Counted from the first letter of the stretch, positions 4,184-17,380 are shown. The stretch is 36,209 bases of DNA from a bacterium (GCA_043823315.1 JBDRAU010000027.1:1-36209); one strand, 5' to 3'. Made by a program: numbers and translations. Notes: a model not told the origin generated them from the sequence alone.

Positions 4184-5431
4184 TTACGAAATGTCCAGTA
4201 CGGATATGGGTTTTTTAAATACCGGTTTGGCTACTTCGACTTCACTTTCTTTCTTCTTTTTAATTAATGTCGATCGATTGGCAATTTCAGCTACAATAAT
4301 AGCTAACCAGAAGTAATCATAATTTATGGTAAACAGAAACATACTGGAAACGAATACGCCTATAACACCTGCTTTAGCGGCTCGCGAAAAGGGCGTACTT
4401 CCCCTGATTGACACAGTTGGAATGATCACTGCGATAAGTAAAATGAAAGCGACAACGCCTCCCTCTACTAACGCCTGAATCAAAATATTATGAGCAGTTT
4501 TGTACTCTTTAGTCATCTTGTTTGACATAGACTTGAATGTTCCAAAACCATATCCGGCAAGAGGTTTATCTCGCCAAAGCTTGATTGACTCCTCCCAGAT
4601 TGGGATACGATTAGCGCTATAGCGGTCAAGTTTATCAATTTTAGCAAAACGAGACAGAAGAGTGGGATTAATGATTGCTATTGATGCGGTTGCTAATGAG
4701 AGAATGAAAACAAAGGCCAGGATTGCCTTCCTCTTTCTCTCATGCTTGAAATACAAAACTACAAGAACTATAACGAGGGCCAAAAATGCGATGAAAGCAC
4801 CGCGGGATCCGGTATAAGCCAAAGTTGAAAAAAGTATTACCGCTGCAATCAGATCAAGCAGGCTGTATTTTTTTCTTTCCACAAAGTCAACGATTAAAAA
4901 AGCGATTGGCAAAAGAAGCGTGCTGGCGATCTGGTTAGGATCTGCCCGATAGTAACCATTCGTAATGGTGGCCCTGACGAAGCTAGTTATGCCTTGTACG
5001 TAAAAAGTTGTAAAGAAGACTGCGGTCGAAAGTAAAATCCCCGAAAGGATAATAGCATGTCTGATAACCCTTTTTTCGGAATAATTGAATGGGTATGAGC
5101 TGATTATTAGCAAGAAGAAAAAGTGTTTTGAAATAAAGATGTAGTCGTAAATAGAAGCGGCTCTGTTGACTGACCAATATATGGAAAGTCCCGCCCAAAT
5201 AAAAAAAGCTACCCATGGAACGGCGGTTTTAGTTAGTTTGACCAGTCTTGGCTTGAATAGCAGATAAATAAGGATGAGGATGCTCGTAATGACAGCGGTA
5301 ATCGTGGCGTATGACACAACAACGATTATGTGAGTTGCCATAATCGCTTCGAACGGAATTAGAAGGATATAAACTATAAAAGCGTAGGTCGGTAACTTGA
5401 TCTCTTTGAGATCAAAATTCAATTCGTCCAT
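4184..5431 (-). CDS. O-antigen ligase/polymerase-like (Wzy_C family) polytopic membrane protein
   Basis: 415 aa with about 10 predicted TM segments and a central loop AYTGSRGAFIAFLALV typical of the O-antigen ligase/Wzy_C family. Glycan-cluster context. Confidence 0.65.
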   Translation of the reverse strand: MDELNFDLKEIKLPTYAFIVYILLIPFEAIMATHIIVVVSYATITAVITSILILIYLLFKPRLVKLTKTAVPWVAFFIWAGLSIYWSVNRAASIYDYIFISKHFFFLLIISSYPFNYSEKRVIRHAIILSGILLSTAVFFTTFYVQGITSFVRATITNGYYRADPNQIASTLLLPIAFLIVDFVERKKYSLLDLIAAVILFSTLAYTGSRGAFIAFLALVIVLVVLYFKHERKRKAILAFVFILSLATASIAIINPTLLSRFAKIDKLDRYSANRIPIWEESIKLWRDKPLAGYGFGTFKSMSNKMTKEYKTAHNILIQALVEGGVVAFILLIAVIIPTVSIRGSTPFSRAAKAGVIGVFVSSMFLFTINYDYFWLAIIVAEIANRSTLIKKKKESEVEVAKPVFKKPISVLDIS

Positions 5432-7294: not shown

Positions 7295-7403
7295 AAGTGA
7301 ATATTTGATTTTAATAATGATAACATGGCTTACTATATAGTATAAAAAGTTTTATTTTTTTGAATAAGTGCTTAACTATAAGTAGTTTACTTAGATACAA
7401 AAC

Positions 7404-9145: not shown

Positions 9146-9221
9146 TGGTCGGAGCGGCGAGACTCGAACTCGCGACCTCAGGACCCCCAGCCCTGCGCAC
9201 TACCAACTGTGCTACGCCCCG
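9146..9221 (-). tRNA. tRNA-Pro (anticodon GGG), CCA encoded
   Basis: Minus-strand cloverleaf: CGGGGCG TA GCAC AGTTGGTA GTGC G CAGGG CTGGGGG TCCTG AGGTC GCGAG TTCGAGT CTCGC CGCTCCG A CCA (76 nt). Confidence 0.9.
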
Positions 9222-12591: not shown

Positions 12592-12624
12592 ATATTCAGT
12601 CATTTGATAGACCTTTTAAGGTTT

Positions 12625-12713
12625 GCCGATATAGCCCCGACGATCGTAGCTGTCGGGGTCCCGACCAGAGCGTCGGGACTCAGATTCCAGGGGGATCCTT
12701 CGGTTGGTAGAGT
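12625..12713 (+). other. Interrupted 5' fragment of a Thr-type tRNA (acceptor strand plus D arm) carrying GC-hairpin insertions
   Basis: GCCGATATAG | hairpins at 12635-12658 and 12659-12678 | CTCAG | 20-nt insert | TTGGTAGAGT. Compare the intact GCCGACATAGCTCAGTTGGTAGAGC at 13446. Confidence 0.5.
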
Positions 12714-12724
12714 CCTGTTTTTTT

Positions 12725-12799
12725 GCCAGCGTAGCTCAGTGGTAGAGCAGCACTTTTGTAAAGTGACGGTCGGGGGTTCGAATCCCTTCGCTGGCTCCA
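12725..12799 (+). tRNA. tRNA-Thr (anticodon UGU), CCA encoded
   Basis: GCCAGCG TA GCTC AGTGGTA GAGC A GCACT TTTGTAA AGTGA CGGTC GGGGG TTCGAAT CCCTT CGCTGGC T CCA (75 nt, with a 27:43 mismatch). Confidence 0.9.
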
Positions 12800-12945
12800 G
12801 ATTTCACCGATTGGGGCTTGCCCCAAGCGGTGAAAGATTTGGAGACACGAGAAGATTCGAAGGCCGGAGCAGCTTGGCTGCGAGGCGGGGTCGACGGCAA
12901 AATCAGCAGATTTTGACCGGTGACCAAATCCCTTCGCTGGCTCCA
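12800..12945 (+). ncRNA. tRNA-3'-linked structured element, copy 1 (novel family; ends in a second copy of tRNA-Thr(UGU) positions ~58-76 plus CCA)
   Basis: Starts GATTT directly after the CCA. It has three hairpins and the invariant blocks TCGAAGGCCG, GCGAGGCGGGGT and GTGACC, and ends in AATCCCTTCGCTGGCTCCA. Confidence 0.6.
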
Positions 12946-12964
12946 AAATGAGCTGAGTAAAAGT

Positions 12965-12998
12965 AGGTCGTCCCGCCACGGCGGGACTATCGGCTCCA
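12965..12998 (+). other. Orphan tRNA 3' fragment whose acceptor strand matches the 5' fragment at 12625
   Basis: AGGTC + hairpin GTCCCGCC-ACG-GCGGGAC (in place of a T arm) + TATCGGC T CCA. TATCGGC is the exact complement of GCCGATA at 12625-12631. Confidence 0.5.
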
Positions 12999-13006
12999 GA
13001 TGTCTT

Positions 13007-13050
13007 GCCGGGTTGGTAGAGTGGTCAATTACATCCCGCCGTGGGCGGGA
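13007..13050 (+). other. Orphan class-II-like tRNA 5' fragment (acceptor plus D arm) followed by a GC hairpin
   Basis: GCCGGGT TG GTAG AGTGGTCAA TTAC A, then TCCCGCC-GTG-GGCGGGA. No matching 3' strand (ACCCGGC) was found nearby. Confidence 0.35.
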
Positions 13051-13061
13051 CGCCTCTAAAA

Positions 13062-13328
13062 ATGTATTATACATATATATTAAAAAGTAAAATCGATGGA
13101 AGTTATTATATTGGATCAACTTCTTGCTTGAGAGAAAGGGTAGAAAGACATAATTGCAAGCATGCTGGGTATACTGCGAAAAAAGCACCTTACAAACTAG
13201 TACATTTTGAAAAATTTCTGACGCGTTCGCAGGCCGTTAGTAGAGAGAAAAAGATAAAATCATACAAAGGCGGCGAAGCATTTAGGAAATTAATTTGCTG
13301 GAGTAGCGAAGTGGTCAAACGCATCTGA
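13062..13328 (+). CDS. Small GIY-YIG nuclease family protein (URI domain); its 3' end overlaps tRNA-Tyr by 32 nt
   Basis: MYYTYILKSKIDGSYYIGSTSCLRERVERHN...KKIKSYKGGEAFRKLI shows the GIY/YIG motifs. The start was taken at Met-8 of the tracked ORF. Confidence 0.75.
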   Translation: MYYTYILKSKIDGSYYIGSTSCLRERVERHNCKHAGYTAKKAPYKLVHFEKFLTRSQAVSREKKIKSYKGGEAFRKLICWSSEVVKRI

Positions 13329-13383
13329 CTGTAAATCAGACGGCCTTGCGCCTTCGGGAGTTCGAATCTCTCCTCCAGCACCA
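13297..13383 (+). tRNA. tRNA-Tyr (anticodon GUA), long variable arm, CCA encoded
   Basis: GCTGGAG TA GCG AAGTGGTCAAA CGC A TCTGA CTGTAAA TCAGA CGGCCTTGCGCCTTC GGGAG TTCGAAT CTCTC CTCCAGC A CCA (87 nt). Confidence 0.9.
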
Positions 13384-13385
13384 TT

Positions 13386-13436
13386 GCCGATGTAACTCAG
13401 CTTGCCCCGCCCATGACAGGCGGGGTGAAGTAGAGT
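13386..13436 (+). other. Orphan Thr-type tRNA 5' fragment with a GC hairpin in the D loop
   Basis: GCCGATG TA ACTC AGC TTG [CCCCGCC-CATGACA-GGCGGGG] TGAAGTA GAGT. Its acceptor strand is complementary to CATCGGC at 13637-13643. Confidence 0.5.
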
Positions 13437-13445
13437 AAACGATAA

Positions 13446-13521
13446 GCCGACATAGCTCAGTTGGTAGAGCGCGATCATGGTAAGATTGAGGTCCGCGGTT
13501 CGAATCCGCGTGTCGGCTCCA
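13446..13521 (+). tRNA. tRNA-Thr (anticodon GGU), CCA encoded
   Basis: GCCGACA TA GCTC AGTTGGTA GAGC G CGATC ATGGTAA GATTG AGGTC CGCGG TTCGAAT CCGCG TGTCGGC T CCA (76 nt). Confidence 0.9.
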
Positions 13522-13647
13522 GATTTATTGTAAATAAATATTTGGAGACGACAGGATTCGAAGGCCGCAGCCGCGACGGCGGCGAGGCGGGGTCGAGAGA
13601 TTTGCTAGCAGGCAAATACTCGTGACCGAATCCGCTCATCGGCTCCA
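13522..13647 (+). ncRNA. tRNA-3'-linked structured element, copy 2
   Basis: Same block order as copy 1. It ends in CGAATCCGC TCA TCGGCTCCA, which differs from the adjacent tRNA at 3 acceptor positions. Confidence 0.6.
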
Positions 13648-13662
13648 TAAATAAAGAAAATT

Positions 13663-13881
13663 ATGAAAAAAATATTCTTCAATTATACATTCGGCTTGAT
13701 ATTGATCGTTGGATCGGTTGCGACCTTTGCTCAATCGTTGAATCCGACTTTTCTTGCCTCGGCCGATGCGGCAGATGTTCCCATCCTCACATCTTCGGTA
13801 GTTCTCTCTTCTGTAGGAGGAATTCTGTTTATAGGTGGGTTTCTAATTATTGTTTTTAAAGTAATGAAAGGAAAGCGTTGA
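13663..13881 (+). CDS. Small secreted/membrane protein (signal peptide plus C-terminal TM helix)
   Basis: 72 aa with an N-terminal hydrophobic segment ending AQS and a C-terminal helix GGILFIGGFLIIVF. No homolog recognised. Confidence 0.4.
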   Translation: MKKIFFNYTFGLILIVGSVATFAQSLNPTFLASADAADVPILTSSVVLSSVGGILFIGGFLIIVFKVMKGKR

Positions 13882-13882
13882 T

Positions 13883-14050
13883 ATGGCTAAAAAAGGAACA
13901 AGATTAAGTAACTTACCTCTAGAATGCAGCAAGTGTGGCAGGAGAAATTATGTATCGAGTCGCTCAAATATCCAGCCAGTTAAAAAACTCGATATGAAGA
14001 AGTTTTGCCAAAAGTGTAAGGAACATACGCAGCACAAAGAGAGTAAATAA
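13883..14050 (+). CDS. rpmG: Ribosomal protein L33 (55 aa; below the ORF-track size cutoff)
   Basis: Own translation: MAKKGTRLSNLPLECSKCGRRNYVSSRSNIQPVKKLDMKKFCQKCKEHTQHKESK. It has the two CxxC pairs and the KE(S/T)K end typical of L33, followed by tRNA-Trp as in many bacteria. Confidence 0.85.
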   Translation: MAKKGTRLSNLPLECSKCGRRNYVSSRSNIQPVKKLDMKKFCQKCKEHTQHKESK

Positions 14051-14098
14051 TTGAAAATTGGAATTTAAGAATTGAAAATTCCGCCGATAGGCGGATGT

Positions 14099-14172
14099 AG
14101 GCCCTTGGTTAAACGGTATAATGGCGGTCTCCAAAACCGCAGTCAGAGGTTCGACTCCTCTAGGGCCTGCCA
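14099..14172 (+). tRNA. tRNA-Trp (anticodon CCA), CCA end encoded
   Basis: AGGCCCT TG GTTA AACGGTA TAAT G GCGGT CTCCAAA ACCGC AGTC AGAGG TTCGACT CCTCT AGGGCCT G CCA (74 nt). Confidence 0.9.
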
Positions 14173-14315
14173 GATTTTTGCAACCACCGGAGGTGGGTGC
14201 AAAAATATTTGACGACCAAGGAGTCGAAGGCCGGAGCGAGTGAAGACGAGCGAGGCGGGGTAGCGAGTCGCGCCAGCAGGCGCGAACTTGTGACCGACTC
14301 CTCTAGGGCCTGCCA
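14173..14315 (+). ncRNA. tRNA-3'-linked structured element, copy 3
   Basis: Same block order as copies 1 and 2. It ends in CGACTCCTCTAGGGCCTGCCA, identical to the last 21 nt of tRNA-Trp. Confidence 0.6.
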
Positions 14316-14449
14316 TATGTTGAACGAGTTCCACCTTGTTGGGACGAGAGAAGACAGGTGCGTCCGGTAATTGACGCTTCTGCAATAATACGACGTAGTC
14401 GATTTTGCAGAAAGGAATACTAACCGGACCAATATGATTTTTTAACAAA

Positions 14450-17380
14450 ATGCAAAAAAATAAGTACGCTTTAGAAGAAGAGGAAATCTTAAAGTTCTGG
14501 GAGAAGAACAAGATTTTCGAGCGTTCAATTACTGAAAGACCAGAGAATAAACCATACGTTTTTTATGACGGGCCTCCTTTTGCAACCGGTCTTCCGCATT
14601 ATGGCCACATTCTATCCTCGACTGTAAAAGATGTATTTCCTCGTTACCAGACGATGAAGGGCAAGAGGGTTGATCGTCGCTGGGGCTGGGATTGTCATGG
14701 CCTGCCAATTGAAAATATTGCCGAAAAAGAACTGGGGATTAAAACCAAGAAACAAATTGAAGAATTCGGTGTCGAAAAGTTTAACGAATTTTGTCGCTCA
14801 AAGGTTTTGGAATATGCCGAAGAGTGGAAGAAAGTTATCCATCGGCTTGGCCGCTGGGCCGATATGGAAAATGCTTATAAGACGATGGACCCAAACTACA
14901 TGGAATCGGTCTGGTGGGTATTTAAAGAACTTTGGGACAAAGGCCTGATCTACGAGGGCTATCGCTCGATGCATATTTGCCCGCGCTGCGAGACGACTCT
15001 TTCACAATCCGAAGTTGCCGAGGGATATAAAGATATTAAAGATTTATCGGTTGTTGCGAAATTTCACTTAAAATCAGGACAGAAATTTGCCGATGGAAAA
15101 TACGAAATAAAAGACTCTGCTTATATTTTAGCTTGGACGACCACGCCGTGGACGTTAATTGGTAATGTTGCACTTGCGGTAGGGGAGAACATCAAATACA
15201 CTGCACTCCGAATCGATGGTAGCTTGTATATTATTGCCACTGATCGAATTGAAGATGTTTTTGCTGATCAAAAATATGAAATCGTCCACAATGATCTAGT
15301 AGGGAAAGATCTAGTCGGGCTGAAATATGAGCCACTTTTTGAAACTGATAATAAAATAGAGAATTCCAAGAATGGTTGGCAAGTCGTTCCTGCCGATTTC
15401 GTAACTACGGAAGATGGCACCGGCATTGTTCACGTTGCTCCAGCTTTTGGCGAAGATGATCTGAACTTGAGCAAGAAATTAAATTTGCCATTTATTCAGC
15501 ACATTGGCATGGATGGAATTATCAAGTCCGGATACGGTGAATTTTCAGGACTATCGGTCAAGCCAGCAGGGGATGTTCAGATAACCGATGTTGCTGTTAT
15601 GAAATATTTAGACGGCAAAAATTTACTATTCGATAAAACGCAGTATGAACATTCCTATCCGCATTGTTGGCGCTGCGAAACGCCCCTTATTAATTATGCT
15701 ACCTCGTCGTGGTTTGTTGCAGTTGAAAAAGTCAAAAATGAAGCAATTAAGTTATCCAAAGATATTGACTGGATGCCCAATCATATCAAGGATGGCCGAT
15801 TCGGTATGTGGCTTAAGGGCGCGCGCGACTGGTCAATTTCCCGTCAGCGATATTGGGCGTCAGTAATTCCGATTTGGGTGTGTGATCAAGATTCCAAGCA
15901 CCAAAAAGTTATTGGCTCTATAAAAGAGCTGGAAGATTTGTCTAGTCAAAAAGTTACCGACTTGCACAAACACATTATCGACAAAGTCGTATTTAAGTGT
16001 GATGAGTGTAGCGGAAAGATGAAACGCATTCCCGATGTTCTTGATACTTGGTTTGACTCTGGCTCGATGCCATATGCTCAAATGCATTATCCGTTTGAGC
16101 ATAAAGAAAAGTTTGAAGATAATTTCCCGGCTGAATTTATCGGGGAGGGAATTGACCAAACTCGCGCTTGGTTTTACTATTTACATATTTTATCAACAGC
16201 AATAATGCACAAGTCCGCTTACAGGAATGTTGCTGTGAATGGAATTGTCTTAGCAGAAGATGGCAAGAAGATGTCAAAGCGCTTAAACAATTATCCCGAT
16301 CCGATGAAGATTTTTGATCAGTACGGTGCCGATGCTTTGAGGTTTTATCTAATGGGCTCTACCGTTATGCAGGCCGAAAATTTATTTTTCAGCGAGCTTG
16401 AATTAAGGGAAGCGTATAACAAAGTTATAAACACCCTCAATAATATTTTGAGTTTCTACAAAATCTACAAAGGTGAAATTAAAGATGCCGAGATTGAGAA
16501 CGCTCATCTTCCGGCTATTGATAGATACATCCTTTCCCGTTTAGAATCAAGCATCGAGCAAGTTGAGGAATCGTTTACAAAATACGATAGCGTAAAGGCC
16601 TGTCGTCAGATAAGGTTATTTATAGAAGATTTCTCGGTTTGGTGGCTACGCCGCTCGCGTGAAAGATTCAGAAGCGAGCAGAAAAACGAACGTGAAATTG
16701 CAATGACGACTTTGAAATACGTTCTTTTAAAAACTTCTCAAATGATTGCACCTCTGTTGCCATTTACTGCCGAATCAATTTGGCAAGAAGTTAAGCTCGA
16801 TGACGATCCGGAAAGCGTTCATTTGAGTAATTGGCCAAAGGCAAACAAGCAAATGCTGGACGAGAATCTCGAACAAATTATGGGAAGGGCAAGAAGGGTC
16901 GTTGAAACGGGACACAGTTTAAGGCAGAAAAATTCCCTGAAAGTTCGTCAACCGCTTGCGCAAATATCCTTTGCTCCCGGCTTTGGTGACTTTGATGACG
17001 AGATAATTCCGATTATTCTCGAAGAACTAAATATCGAAAAAAGTGTTTCAAAAAACGAAATCAAAAGTCCAGATTCACTGGAGGATCACGAGCTCGAGGT
17101 TACGATCGATACAGAGATTGATGAACGTCTCCAAGGTTTAGGGGATCTGCGCGATATCATTAGGGCAATTCAAAACTTACGAAAGAATATGGATCTTTCA
17201 CCGAGCGAGAAAGTGAGCGTTATTTACTTTGCCGATGAAAAAGTGAAGAAGTTTATTGAATCAAATAATGCAGAAATCAAGTCCTCGACAAATCTTGACG
17301 AACTCTCTTGCAAAGAGACAGATCAGGAAAATAAAGTTGAAATTTCACTAGGAAGCGTTTACTTTAAAGTTCTAAAGTGA
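14450..17380 (+). CDS. ileS: Isoleucyl-tRNA synthetase
   Basis: 976 aa with a HIGH region (PPFATGLPHYGHIL), a KMSKS region (GKKMSKRL) and the editing-domain insertion typical of IleRS. Confidence 0.95.
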   Translation: MQKNKYALEEEEILKFWEKNKIFERSITERPENKPYVFYDGPPFATGLPHYGHILSSTVKDVFPRYQTMKGKRVDRRWGWDCHGLPIENIAEKELGIKTKKQIEEFGVEKFNEFCRSKVLEYAEEWKKVIHRLGRWADMENAYKTMDPNYMESVWWVFKELWDKGLIYEGYRSMHICPRCETTLSQSEVAEGYKDIKDLSVVAKFHLKSGQKFADGKYEIKDSAYILAWTTTPWTLIGNVALAVGENIKYTALRIDGSLYIIATDRIEDVFADQKYEIVHNDLVGKDLVGLKYEPLFETDNKIENSKNGWQVVPADFVTTEDGTGIVHVAPAFGEDDLNLSKKLNLPFIQHIGMDGIIKSGYGEFSGLSVKPAGDVQITDVAVMKYLDGKNLLFDKTQYEHSYPHCWRCETPLINYATSSWFVAVEKVKNEAIKLSKDIDWMPNHIKDGRFGMWLKGARDWSISRQRYWASVIPIWVCDQDSKHQKVIGSIKELEDLSSQKVTDLHKHIIDKVVFKCDECSGKMKRIPDVLDTWFDSGSMPYAQMHYPFEHKEKFEDNFPAEFIGEGIDQTRAWFYYLHILSTAIMHKSAYRNVAVNGIVLAEDGKKMSKRLNNYPDPMKIFDQYGADALRFYLMGSTVMQAENLFFSELELREAYNKVINTLNNILSFYKIYKGEIKDAEIENAHLPAIDRYILSRLESSIEQVEESFTKYDSVKACRQIRLFIEDFSVWWLRRSRERFRSEQKNEREIAMTTLKYVLLKTSQMIAPLLPFTAESIWQEVKLDDDPESVHLSNWPKANKQMLDENLEQIMGRARRVVETGHSLRQKNSLKVRQPLAQISFAPGFGDFDDEIIPIILEELNIEKSVSKNEIKSPDSLEDHELEVTIDTEIDERLQGLGDLRDIIRAIQNLRKNMDLSPSEKVSVIYFADEKVKKFIESNNAEIKSSTNLDELSCKETDQENKVEISLGSVYFKVLK

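Follow-up and report, generated by a model that had tools for sequence, protein, structure and literature searches.

A guide-bearing structured element at tRNA 3′ ends in candidate phyla radiation bacteria

Known elements at gene 3′ ends and the present locus

Integrative elements that insert at the 3′ ends of transfer RNA (tRNA), transfer-messenger RNA (tmRNA) and protein genes keep the gene complete and leave its displaced 3′ fragment as a direct repeat at the far end of the element (PMC9897764). The element described here shares this arrangement. It is present in three copies in a bacterial stretch of 36,209 nt (GCA_043823315.1, JBDRAU010000027.1:1-36209; the whole stretch is called the window), where each copy lies directly after the encoded CCA of a tRNA gene, carries a short guide and a structured core, and ends in a repeat of a tRNA 3′ end. 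We propose, with about an even chance of being right, that it is a guide-targeted insertion element, devoid of open reading frames (ORFs), that preserves the 3′ end of the host gene. If this is true, the ultra-small bacteria of the candidate phyla radiation (CPR, or Patescibacteria) bear an unrecorded non-coding element, often on about half of a region's tRNA genes, that unites three traits: a phylum-wide RNA fold, a retargetable guide, and harmless insertion into essential genes.

Downstream of the tRNA, the element reads in the order spacer, guide, J1/2 (GAAG), P2, J2/3 (GG), P3, and repeat; P1 is formed by the guide and the start of the repeat. Minimal units measure ~75 nt and typical copies 100–150 nt. 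As with integrative elements, a complete gene is followed by its displaced 3′ fragment as a direct repeat, at tRNA, tmRNA, and topA genes alike; both kinds of element use tRNA and tmRNA genes with a T-loop breakpoint, and successive insertions stack the displaced ends, as at the topA locus L045. Williams reportedly described integrative elements at tRNA and tmRNA genes with such a breakpoint in 2002, and e14 and phage 21 insert at the 3′ end of icd. Unlike integrative elements, which are kilobases long and encode an integrase, the present element has 75–150 nt and neither an integrase nor any other ORF, and no integrase gene is enriched within 2.5 kb of it. Its right end is a phylum-wide RNA-type three-way junction whose guide covaries with the target, and a single element family uses more than 30 different tRNA targets.

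The P1/P10 pairing of group I introns offers a second likeness. The element likewise has a guide beside the core that pairs with the flank of the junction, with covariation at all eight pairs, and the GAA that follows the guide can pair with UUC 54–56, which would place C56|R57 inside a P1-like helix. Engineered trans-splicing ribozymes are ordered guide, core, and attached 3′ exon; the element has the same order, with the repeat in the position of the ‘3′ exon’. The group I core itself (P3–P8, a G-binding site, at least 200 nt) is lacking, however: the element's core is ~66 nt long with two hairpins, no group I model matches it, the last nucleotide before the junction is C and not the terminal omega-G, and the upstream junction C pairs with G where group I introns have a U·G wobble. 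Self-splicing introns should also yield loci that depend on excision, whereas every element locus with a nearby tRNA has that tRNA complete upstream, the only exceptions among 137 matches being the decayed loci L114 and L018.

Strand-specific structured ends, a site that pairing helps to define, and many ORF-less copies are common to the element, the IS200/IS605 insertion sequences, palindrome-associated transposable elements (PATEs), and omega RNAs, the last of which also combine a scaffold with ~20 nt of flanking target. Yet IS200/IS605 elements insert without duplicating their target, whereas the 3′ end of the target is duplicated here; the TnpA, TnpB, and IscB genes are absent beside the element at all ~105 loci; and the flanking ‘20 nt’, unlike those of omega RNAs, are paired to an internal anti-sequence, with no match in Rfam. 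Miniature inverted-repeat transposable elements (MITEs) differ in having terminal inverted repeats and a fixed short duplication, as opposed to a repeat of 18–20 nt (up to 60 nt) and a variable left boundary.

None of the 4227 models of Rfam 15, which should include self-cleaving ribozymes, group I and II introns, tmRNA, T-boxes, and transposon-associated RNAs, matches the element at its gathering score, and only tRNA passes. Even at E ≤ 10 across 12600–14450, only chance-level matches appear (mir-576 with 25 bits, its gathering score being 99, and similar cases), none of them on the core, which agrees with the earlier statement that no known family is recognizable here. No description of the element was found in the literature on CPR tRNA-linked RNAs and mobile elements, subscription-only papers lying outside this search. 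The element falls outside each of the known systems compared.

Fold of the core, guide, and junctions

Core architecture: covariation shows the predicted core to be an RNA-type three-way junction composed of P1 (guide and repeat), a kink-turn-like P2, and P3. The core is 55–92 nt long (~66 nt) and has two hairpins. P2 consists of GCC/GGC closing pairs, a bulged G, tandem G·A/A·G pairs, and then a variable stem-loop; P3 pairs GGUCG.. with ..YGUGACC around a bulged A, and its commonest class is a 15-bp helix with the loop YAGCAG. Conservation is near-complete at about 13 unpaired nucleotides, which cluster at the three-way junction: G-A-A-G in J1/2, the bulged G and the G-A and G-A of P2, G-G in J2/3, and the bulged A. 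The spacer varies in length from 0 to ~110 nt, and in the minimal copies L105 and L111 the guide stands directly 3′ of the tRNA.

In an ungapped, model-independent seed of 27 sequences, 94.3% of the cells are paired and double changes occur at 19 of the 30 pairs, which none of 500 shuffles matches. The larger alignment comprises 135 distinct matches, from 100 sources, to R1, a covariance model built from genomes other than that of the window. Here, 92.1% of the cells are paired, compared with 68.0% after shuffling and at most 44.5% with slid partners, and double changes are seen at 28 of the 30 pairs, including all eight guide/target pairs of P1; being fitted to R1, this alignment leans to the structure. 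The view that compensatory changes reflect a selected fold rather than decay is upheld on these 135 sequences. The fifth pair of P3 is G·U in 132 of the 135 sequences and the seventh is G·U as frequently as G–C; because of this near-invariant wobble, and of the G·U pairs common elsewhere, we place the structure on the tRNA strand and regard it as RNA-like.

At least two structural subfamilies exist. One has a short P2 and a 28-nt P3 with an AGCAG loop, and includes the window copies; in the other, P2 is long, P3 is short, and an additional P0 hairpin ends in a CUGC loop. A kissing interaction between this P0 loop and GCAG loops was considered and dropped, as it was inconsistent across members. 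In the spacers of the P0 subfamily, the motif GAACGAAGUGA recurs directly after the tRNA end (L005, L009, L022, L034, L036, L092, and L116); strings such as AACGAAUGAAG also follow element-free tRNAs (L101 and L036), so the motif may be a native trailer signal. The architecture of P2 (GCC-G-GA..stem..GA-GGC) resembles the kink-turn of the U4 small nuclear RNA 5′ stem-loop and box C/D RNAs in its G–C stem, bulge, tandem sheared G·A/A·G pairs, and second stem, although the bulge has one nucleotide rather than three. The flanks of the U4 kink-turn read GCC-AAU-GA..GA-GGC, which offers a lead for P2. We know of no L7Ae-type partner in these bacteria.

The window copies: all three copies lie on the + strand, as do their host tRNAs, which were called by ARAGORN and Rfam. 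The elements occupy 12800–12945, 13522–13647, and 14173–14315 (146, 126, and 143 nt) directly after the encoded CCA, just as in the preliminary description, and alignment bears out its ten blocks in a common order, including TCGAAGGCCG, GCGAGGCGGGGT, and GTGACC. A single refinement concerns GTGACC and part of GCGAGGCGGGGT: the GGUCG after the second invariant block pairs with YGUGACC, and these segments are therefore not single-stranded linkers but the base of the third helix. The pattern GAAGGCCG-N8-30-GAGGCGGGGT-N20-45-GTGACC occurs three times in the window against 0.00 expected from 100 shuffles, and the three copies score 67–77 bits with R1 (E 2e-24 to 6e-21, filters off).

Copy 1 follows tRNA-Thr(UGU) (12725–12799; Rfam tRNA, 66.8 bits), whose positions 57–76 (12780–12799) are the first occurrence of the repeat. 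Its spacer (12800–12851) contains GATTT, a hairpin UUUCACCG..CGGUGAAA, the anti-NCCA motif UUGGAG (complement of CUCCA), and a linker. The guide AAGAUUC (12852–12858), the 5′ strand of P1, pairs with the start of the repeat from 12926 onward, according to both the covariance-model alignment and the fold. The core (12859–12925) begins with J1/2 GAAG and continues with P2 (12863–12886; GCC/GGC, bulged G, tandem G·A, stem GCAGC/GCUGC), J2/3 GG, and P3 (12889–12925; GGUCG../..GUGACC, bulged A, loop CAGCAG). The second occurrence of tRNA-Thr(UGU) 57–76, with CCA, spans 12926–12945 and equals the tRNA at 19 of 20 nt.

Copy 2 follows tRNA-Thr(GGU) (13446–13521). The spacer (13522–13553) holds GATTT, a weak AT hairpin, the anti-NCCA segment AUAUUUGGAGAC, and a linker; the guide GGAUUC (13554–13559) pairs with GAAUCC at 13628–13633 in alignment and fold; and the core (13560–13627; 77.3 bits) has the P2 stem GCCGC/GCGGC and the P3 loop UAGCAG. 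The repeat (13628–13647) corresponds to positions 57–76 of a different tRNA-Thr allele (GAATCCGCTCATCGGCTCCA): it departs from the adjacent tRNA-Thr(GGU) at three positions, and its acceptor strand CATCGGC fits a 5′ fragment GCCGATG at 13386 and not the present tRNA. Copy 3 follows tRNA-Trp(CCA) (14099–14172), with a spacer (14173–14219) of GATTT, a long hairpin UUUUUGCAACCACC..GGUGGGUGCAAAAA, and then AUAUUUGACGACCAA; a guide GGAGUC (14220–14225) that pairs with GACUCC at 14296–14301 in the covariance-model alignment; a core (14226–14295; 74.8 bits) with an internal GA in the P2 stem, the P3 stem UCGCGC/GCGCGA, and the loop CAGCAG; and a repeat of tRNA-Trp 57–76 with CCA (14296–14315) that is identical over 20 of 20 nt. 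The agreement of these 3′ repeats with the adjacent tRNA that had been noted at the outset is borne out, over 19 nt for Thr-UGU and 20–21 nt for Trp. When the window copies are folded singly (z-scores of -4.2 to -4.7), P2 and P3 emerge in every copy and P1 in the first two, and the remainder of the repeat, as far as CUCCA, is paired with an imperfect ‘extended guide’ UGGAG...

Guide and repeat: the guide comprises 6–8 nt complementary to the first 6–8 nt of the repeat (tRNA positions 57–64), with which it forms P1. In nearly every tRNA locus, the sequence after GUGACC starts at T-loop position 57 (R57), and position 57 to the gene end is duplicated in ~90% of loci. Across 76 loci, identity between the repeat and the upstream tRNA is 0.91–1.0 at positions 57–65, 0.84–0.92 at 66–73, 0.83 at 74, and 0.63 at 75–76, and it falls to a background of ~0.3–0.45 past position 76, so that the repeat ends at the gene 3′ end. 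The repeat is usually 18–20 nt long and bounded by gene features, but it reaches 60 nt in L008; in ~12% of loci identity extends 6–40 nt beyond the tRNA, running through the terminator in L008, and in ~10% an intact core is accompanied by a shortened repeat or none. Immediately before the guide, 19% of loci have an exact 5-nt complement of tRNA 72–76 (UGGN type), as opposed to 2.6% of controls (p = 2e-10).

Two further ideas about the repeat were set aside: derivation from RNA, given no significant asymmetry in CCA (24 of 86 repeats, 20 of 86 genes), and a general mimic of the acceptor stem, which is confined to a subfamily. At many Saccharibacteria loci, most tRNA genes read N73-C-A and not N73-C-C-A, in gene and repeat alike (a single C follows the discriminator in 51 of 86).

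Junctions: the two junctions share the form NNC|R, namely UUC|R57 (UUC|GA) in the T-loop and ACC|R57 (ACC|GA) at the end of the element; of the 135 sequences, 132 have C as the nucleotide at the junction. The trinucleotides before them can pair with invariant parts of the element, UUC 54–56 with GAA of J1/2 and ACC with GGU at the base of P3, and the sequence 3′ of either junction pairs with the guide. This matching symmetry is what strand exchange between two sites would need. In the decayed loci L114 and L018, both from one GC-rich metagenome-assembled genome (MAG) of Paceibacterota, a tRNA remnant and a truncated upstream 3′ end precede an intact core without a downstream repeat. Only the upstream copy is left there, and its UUCGAUUCC(CC), fully complementary to (GG)GGAAUCGAA, is the sole partner of the guide. 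We also considered whether L114 and L018 might be independent genes under a promoter of their own, but what looked like a promoter turned out to be the D-arm of a decayed tRNA-Gly, and the loci are therefore taken to be decaying. At L021, an unusual copy (4422–4511) with a self-contained P1 hairpin (UUGAUUUCC..GGAAAUCAA) and UU:AA in place of UUC:GAA sits in the D-loop of a 5′ tRNA-Ser fragment, ~170 nt upstream of a complete tRNA-Ser that itself bears a normal copy.

Distribution, mobility, and targets

Scanning a one-genome-per-species collection with a 24-base pattern drawn from the invariant blocks gave at least 119 matching stretches, of which ~105 are real; the remainder come from GC-rich genomes, lack a neighbouring tRNA, and match by chance. 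Nearly all the stretches are from Patescibacteria; by record title, the real loci belong to Saccharibacteria, Paceibacterota/Parcubacteria, Berkelbacteria, Moraniibacteriota, Peribacteraceae, WS2, Kaiser-, Nomura-, Adler-, and Campbellbacteria, and unclassified Patescibacteria. No match to the pattern occurs in 2.9 million viral contigs, which argues that the element is not phage-borne. R1 gave 137 matches: 106 have their start no more than 130 nt downstream of a tRNA or tmRNA that lies on the same strand, and another seven form the second unit of a tandem array. The element follows tRNAs of at least 33 anticodon classes and, in three loci, tmRNA. The distribution is patchy: 108 of the 230 tRNAs in element-bearing loci, a biased sample, carry it, compared with none of six tRNAs in 79 metagenome ileS loci of relatives (57–73% identity).

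Copies at different targets are related: in different genomes, cores that share at least 90% identity and have unrelated spacers follow tRNAs for Gly, Glu, Leu, Val, Ser, and Arg as well as tmRNA. At L051 and L100, the cores behind tRNA-Gly(GCC) are 2 nt apart; the spacers measure 27 and 67 nt, and only one locus has a repeat. The 3′ ~50 nt of tRNA-Gly(GCC) shown at these two loci are also identical, and the MAGs are labelled Saccharibacteria and Paceibacterota; this likeness reflects either horizontal transfer of tRNA plus element or a binning or labelling problem.

Presence/absence polymorphism is seen in a syntenic cluster, Leu(GAG)-Val(UAC)-Phe-Met-Gly, common to three Moraniibacteriota MAGs. 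The element follows Leu in L034, where Val is empty, and Val in L036 and L101, where Leu is empty; a native intergenic spacer of ~41–47 nt comes after the repeat. Between L034 and L036, P0 is identical and P2 nearly so, with the guides GAGGAC and AGGGAC, respectively. Tandem arrays also occur, with identical units in L014 and two different subtypes in L005. For the window itself, an exact-protein look-up matched only its own genome and gave no empty site in close relatives, and an IleRS metagenome scan returned one identical contig and 79 distant, non-syntenic loci, with no orthologous empty site.

No protein gene is associated with the element: ORF clustering within 2.5 kb across the ~105 loci enriched no family, the most frequent reaching 10 loci and all being housekeeping. 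Nor does a recombinase or transposase gene lie within this distance, save for unrelated nested islands with large serine recombinases, inserted between tRNA and element in four loci. Five loci with more than 400 nt between tRNA and core were examined as candidate cargo-carrying or autonomous copies and proved to be nested insertions of other islands. The serine recombinase islands (L028 3184–4791, L012, L081, and L101) form one family located at the extreme tRNA 3′ end; their right ends resemble one another (..CGTTCGAAC..), a short remnant of the tRNA end is left behind, and the first part of the element's spacer may belong to their target.

Targeting of topA: two loci, L045 and L058, carry the element immediately 3′ of the topA stop codon. 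The model matches are at 4398–4483 and 4578–4681 on the - strand of L045 (+ strand coordinates) and at 7295–7374 on the + strand of L058, at the topA 3′ end in each case. The last ~22 codons of topA, from AAAAACAATCC, are repeated in diverged form after the element, as a second copy in both loci and a third in L045. Unit 1 of L045 has the guide UGUUUUU, which pairs with its target AAAAACA, and the closing pairs of P2 covary at topA (GAC/GUC and AAC/GUU); the older unit, common to both loci, now has no complementarity between guide and target. The extra topA ends differ from the functional end mostly at synonymous sites, including an AGT/TCA serine switch, which suggests, small as the numbers are, that they evolved as coding sequence in different lineages. 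The topA loci thus point to a general rule, a guide-defined point near the gene 3′ end with that end on both sides.

Competing explanations and surrounding sequences

The evidence shows a structured module, specific to the tRNA strand, that bears a guide, abuts with its right end the first nucleotide paired by that guide, and has changed places among genes. In the proposed guide-targeted insertion, the guide would set the insertion point between C56 and R57 of the tRNA or tmRNA T-loop, because it complements the sequence right after the element. The inserted copy would leave a complete gene upstream, with position 57 to the end on both sides and hence no harm to the host gene, while the old or duplicated 3′ end would stay downstream as a fragment held in P1. 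The family would then spread between tRNA genes and genomes, its guide being retargeted on the way. It would move by itself or with a factor encoded elsewhere; the NNC|R strand exchange would be either RNA chemistry, such as transesterification resembling reverse splicing, or protein-catalysed recombination on a folded DNA strand, and the G·U pairs and tandem G·A motif lead us to favour RNA. The upstream 3′ end may have arrived with the element or have arisen by duplication of the target. Among the options raised in the preliminary description, a non-autonomous element at tRNA 3′ ends with a ~20-nt duplication fits best in view of the related cores, polymorphism, tandem arrays, and topA copies, except that the ‘target duplication’ may be a carried-in replacement 3′ end; a tRNA-tethered module with its own CCA end is weakened by the loss of the repeat in ~10% of loci and by the predicted pairing of the repeat's CCA. 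If insertion is guided in this way, the element would be a new family, possibly a new ribozyme class or an RNA-guided recombination substrate, among the few protein-less mobile RNAs; it would provide a compact natural case of guide-programmed insertion at a defined nucleotide and explain many tRNA-fragment ‘pseudogenes’ in CPR annotations.

Several observations weigh against this interpretation. The loci examined include neither an autonomous, ORF-bearing copy nor an excision product, nor did any near-identical strain provide a strictly orthologous empty site. None of the 137 matches keeps the downstream 3′ end without the upstream one. A terminator-like hairpin lies between tRNA and core in 33 of 90 loci, which would limit co-transcription of the core and, together with the lack of any splicing-dependent locus, makes efficient splicing unlikely. 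The acceptor part of the repeat stays 84–92% identical to the tRNA with no obvious need, hinting at a function beyond debris, and the striking in-place conservation of the core at L051 and L100 could equally mean selection at host level. In the window, spacer and stem sequences differ completely among all three copies, so none is a recent copy of another. The taxon labels of the MAGs are used as deposited.

A more specific and, in our estimate, unlikely possibility is that the core acts as a new transesterifying ribozyme of ~70 nt, an intron-like mobile RNA that enters the genome as an insertion with a spare 3′ end. Guide and GAA would dock UUC|R57–64 of the T-loop or another matching site, and strand exchange between UUC|R and the RNA's own ACC|R end would attach the RNA to, or swap, the 3′ part of tRNAs, tmRNA, and mRNAs; a milder version would be a natural ‘3′-end replacement’ (RNA repair) cartridge. 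A host-beneficial cis-acting trailer, whose co-transcribed RNA self-cleaves, recruits RNase P, Z, or another RNase for 3′ maturation, or clamps NCCA, is likewise improbable. It would account for the constant position directly after tRNA or tmRNA on their strand, the strong in-place conservation of the core, and the excess of complements to N72–N76 before the guide, which is reminiscent of the way RNase P RNA and T-boxes bind NCCA; and within the window no terminator is predicted between tRNA and element. Yet only some tRNAs carry the element, in sets that differ among related genomes, the topA copies with their duplicated coding ends speak against tRNA-specific processing, a third of the spacers have the terminator-like hairpin upstream of the core, models of known self-cleaving ribozymes find no match, and processing needs no duplication of 57–76. 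Even as a host-function RNA, it would rank among the most widespread unassigned structured RNAs of a major bacterial radiation. The element might instead have no role as RNA and be a DNA recombination site, a folded single strand or att arm for a recombinase encoded elsewhere (for example, of the tyrosine/Xer or HUH type), with the guide:repeat duplex mimicking the double-stranded T-loop target much as the CTX phage hairpin mimics dif. The terminator-like hairpins, the NNC|R form of both junctions, and the identity of guide plus GAA with the bottom-strand sequence of TTCGAATCC would all suit such a site, and the order of complete gene, element, and displaced 3′ fragment is integrase-type geometry (PMC9897764). 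What makes it distinctly unlikely is the near-invariant G·U and its frequency in variable stems (59 G·U versus 49 G–C at one pair), the tandem sheared G·A next to a bulged G that is typical of RNA, the lack of nearby recombinase genes outside the nested islands, and the lack of viral copies.

Two other explanations assign the repeat a more active part. In a guide-RNA scaffold analogous to a TnpB/IscB omega RNA or bridge RNA, the 18–20 nt repeat would serve as the spacer for a protein encoded elsewhere. The layout of a scaffold with ~20 nt of flanking target, the fixed junction after GUGACC, strand specificity, and many copies per genome are all in its favour, but we judge it very improbable: the occupied site keeps the full target (GGTTC plus 57–76), which would expose the locus itself to the nuclease; the ‘spacer’ is predicted to pair with the internal guide and the anti-NCCA motif and is missing in 10% of loci; no TnpB, IscB, or IS110 gene adjoins any of the loci examined; and Rfam, which is expected to hold models of the omega-RNA type, gives no match. 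Least probable of all is a tRNA-like small RNA, a minihelix mimic of the acceptor and T-arm with its own CCA that would act as decoy or substrate of tRNA-binding enzymes. One subfamily does carry, before the guide, a copy of the acceptor 5′ strand (for example, GCGGGAT in L005) and a P0 hairpin, the repeat stops at the mature 3′ end, and the folds pair the whole repeat with the extended guide; however, the acceptor mimic is found in ~11% of loci compared with 5% of controls, complementarity rises little overall, the CCA is predicted to be paired and is not in excess in the repeat over the gene, and the topA copies do not fit.

Surroundings in the window: tRNA-Tyr (13297–13383, + strand) and tRNA-Pro (9146–9221, - strand), both called by ARAGORN and Rfam, are without the element, as first reported, since the next-best R1 score in the window is only 8.4 bits. 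The neighbouring genes are housekeeping (MnmA, glycosyltransferases, HolB-like, TPR, L33, IleRS, FtsW, NusG, DprA, TopA, RecR, CysRS, and NYN), and no transposase, reverse transcriptase, or integrase is among the window genes. A small GIY-YIG nuclease gene (13065–13328; Pfam E 3e-14) lies between the Thr(UGU) element and tRNA-Tyr, its end overlapping the start of the tRNA; in the ORF clustering it did not recur beside the element at other loci. Free-standing GIY-YIG genes occur in phage tRNA clusters.

Fragments of tRNA genes lie close to copies 1 and 2. Upstream of tRNA-Thr(UGU), a 5′ fragment at 12625–12713 (GCCGATATAGC..TCAG..GTTGGTAGAGT) comprises the acceptor strand and D-arm, broken by GC-rich hairpins, and a matching 3′ fragment TATCGGCTCCA follows the copy 1 element at 12988–12998; their GCCGATA and TATCGGC would give a perfect 7-bp acceptor stem. 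Together they resemble the parts of an older tRNA-Thr gene that later insertions have separated. Immediately before tRNA-Thr(GGU), a second 5′ fragment (13386–13436; GCCGATGTAACTCAG, a hairpin, and GTAGAGT) has an acceptor strand that pairs perfectly with CATCGGC of the copy 2 repeat and not with the present tRNA (GCCGACA/TGTCGGC), which is why the present tRNA-Thr(GGU) and its element seem to replace the middle of an older allele. Such upstream 5′ fragments were also considered as part of the same event as the element and showed no enrichment (8 of 102 element-bearing tRNAs, 7 of 121 others). Among the fragments, short GC-rich hairpins of the form (G)UCCCGCC-NNN-GGCGGGAC or CCCGAC..GUCGGG occur at 12630–12680, 12963–12987, 13035–13056, and 13405–13428, and the same CCCGCC..GGCGGG hairpin forms the P2 stem of elements in L047, L096, and L097.

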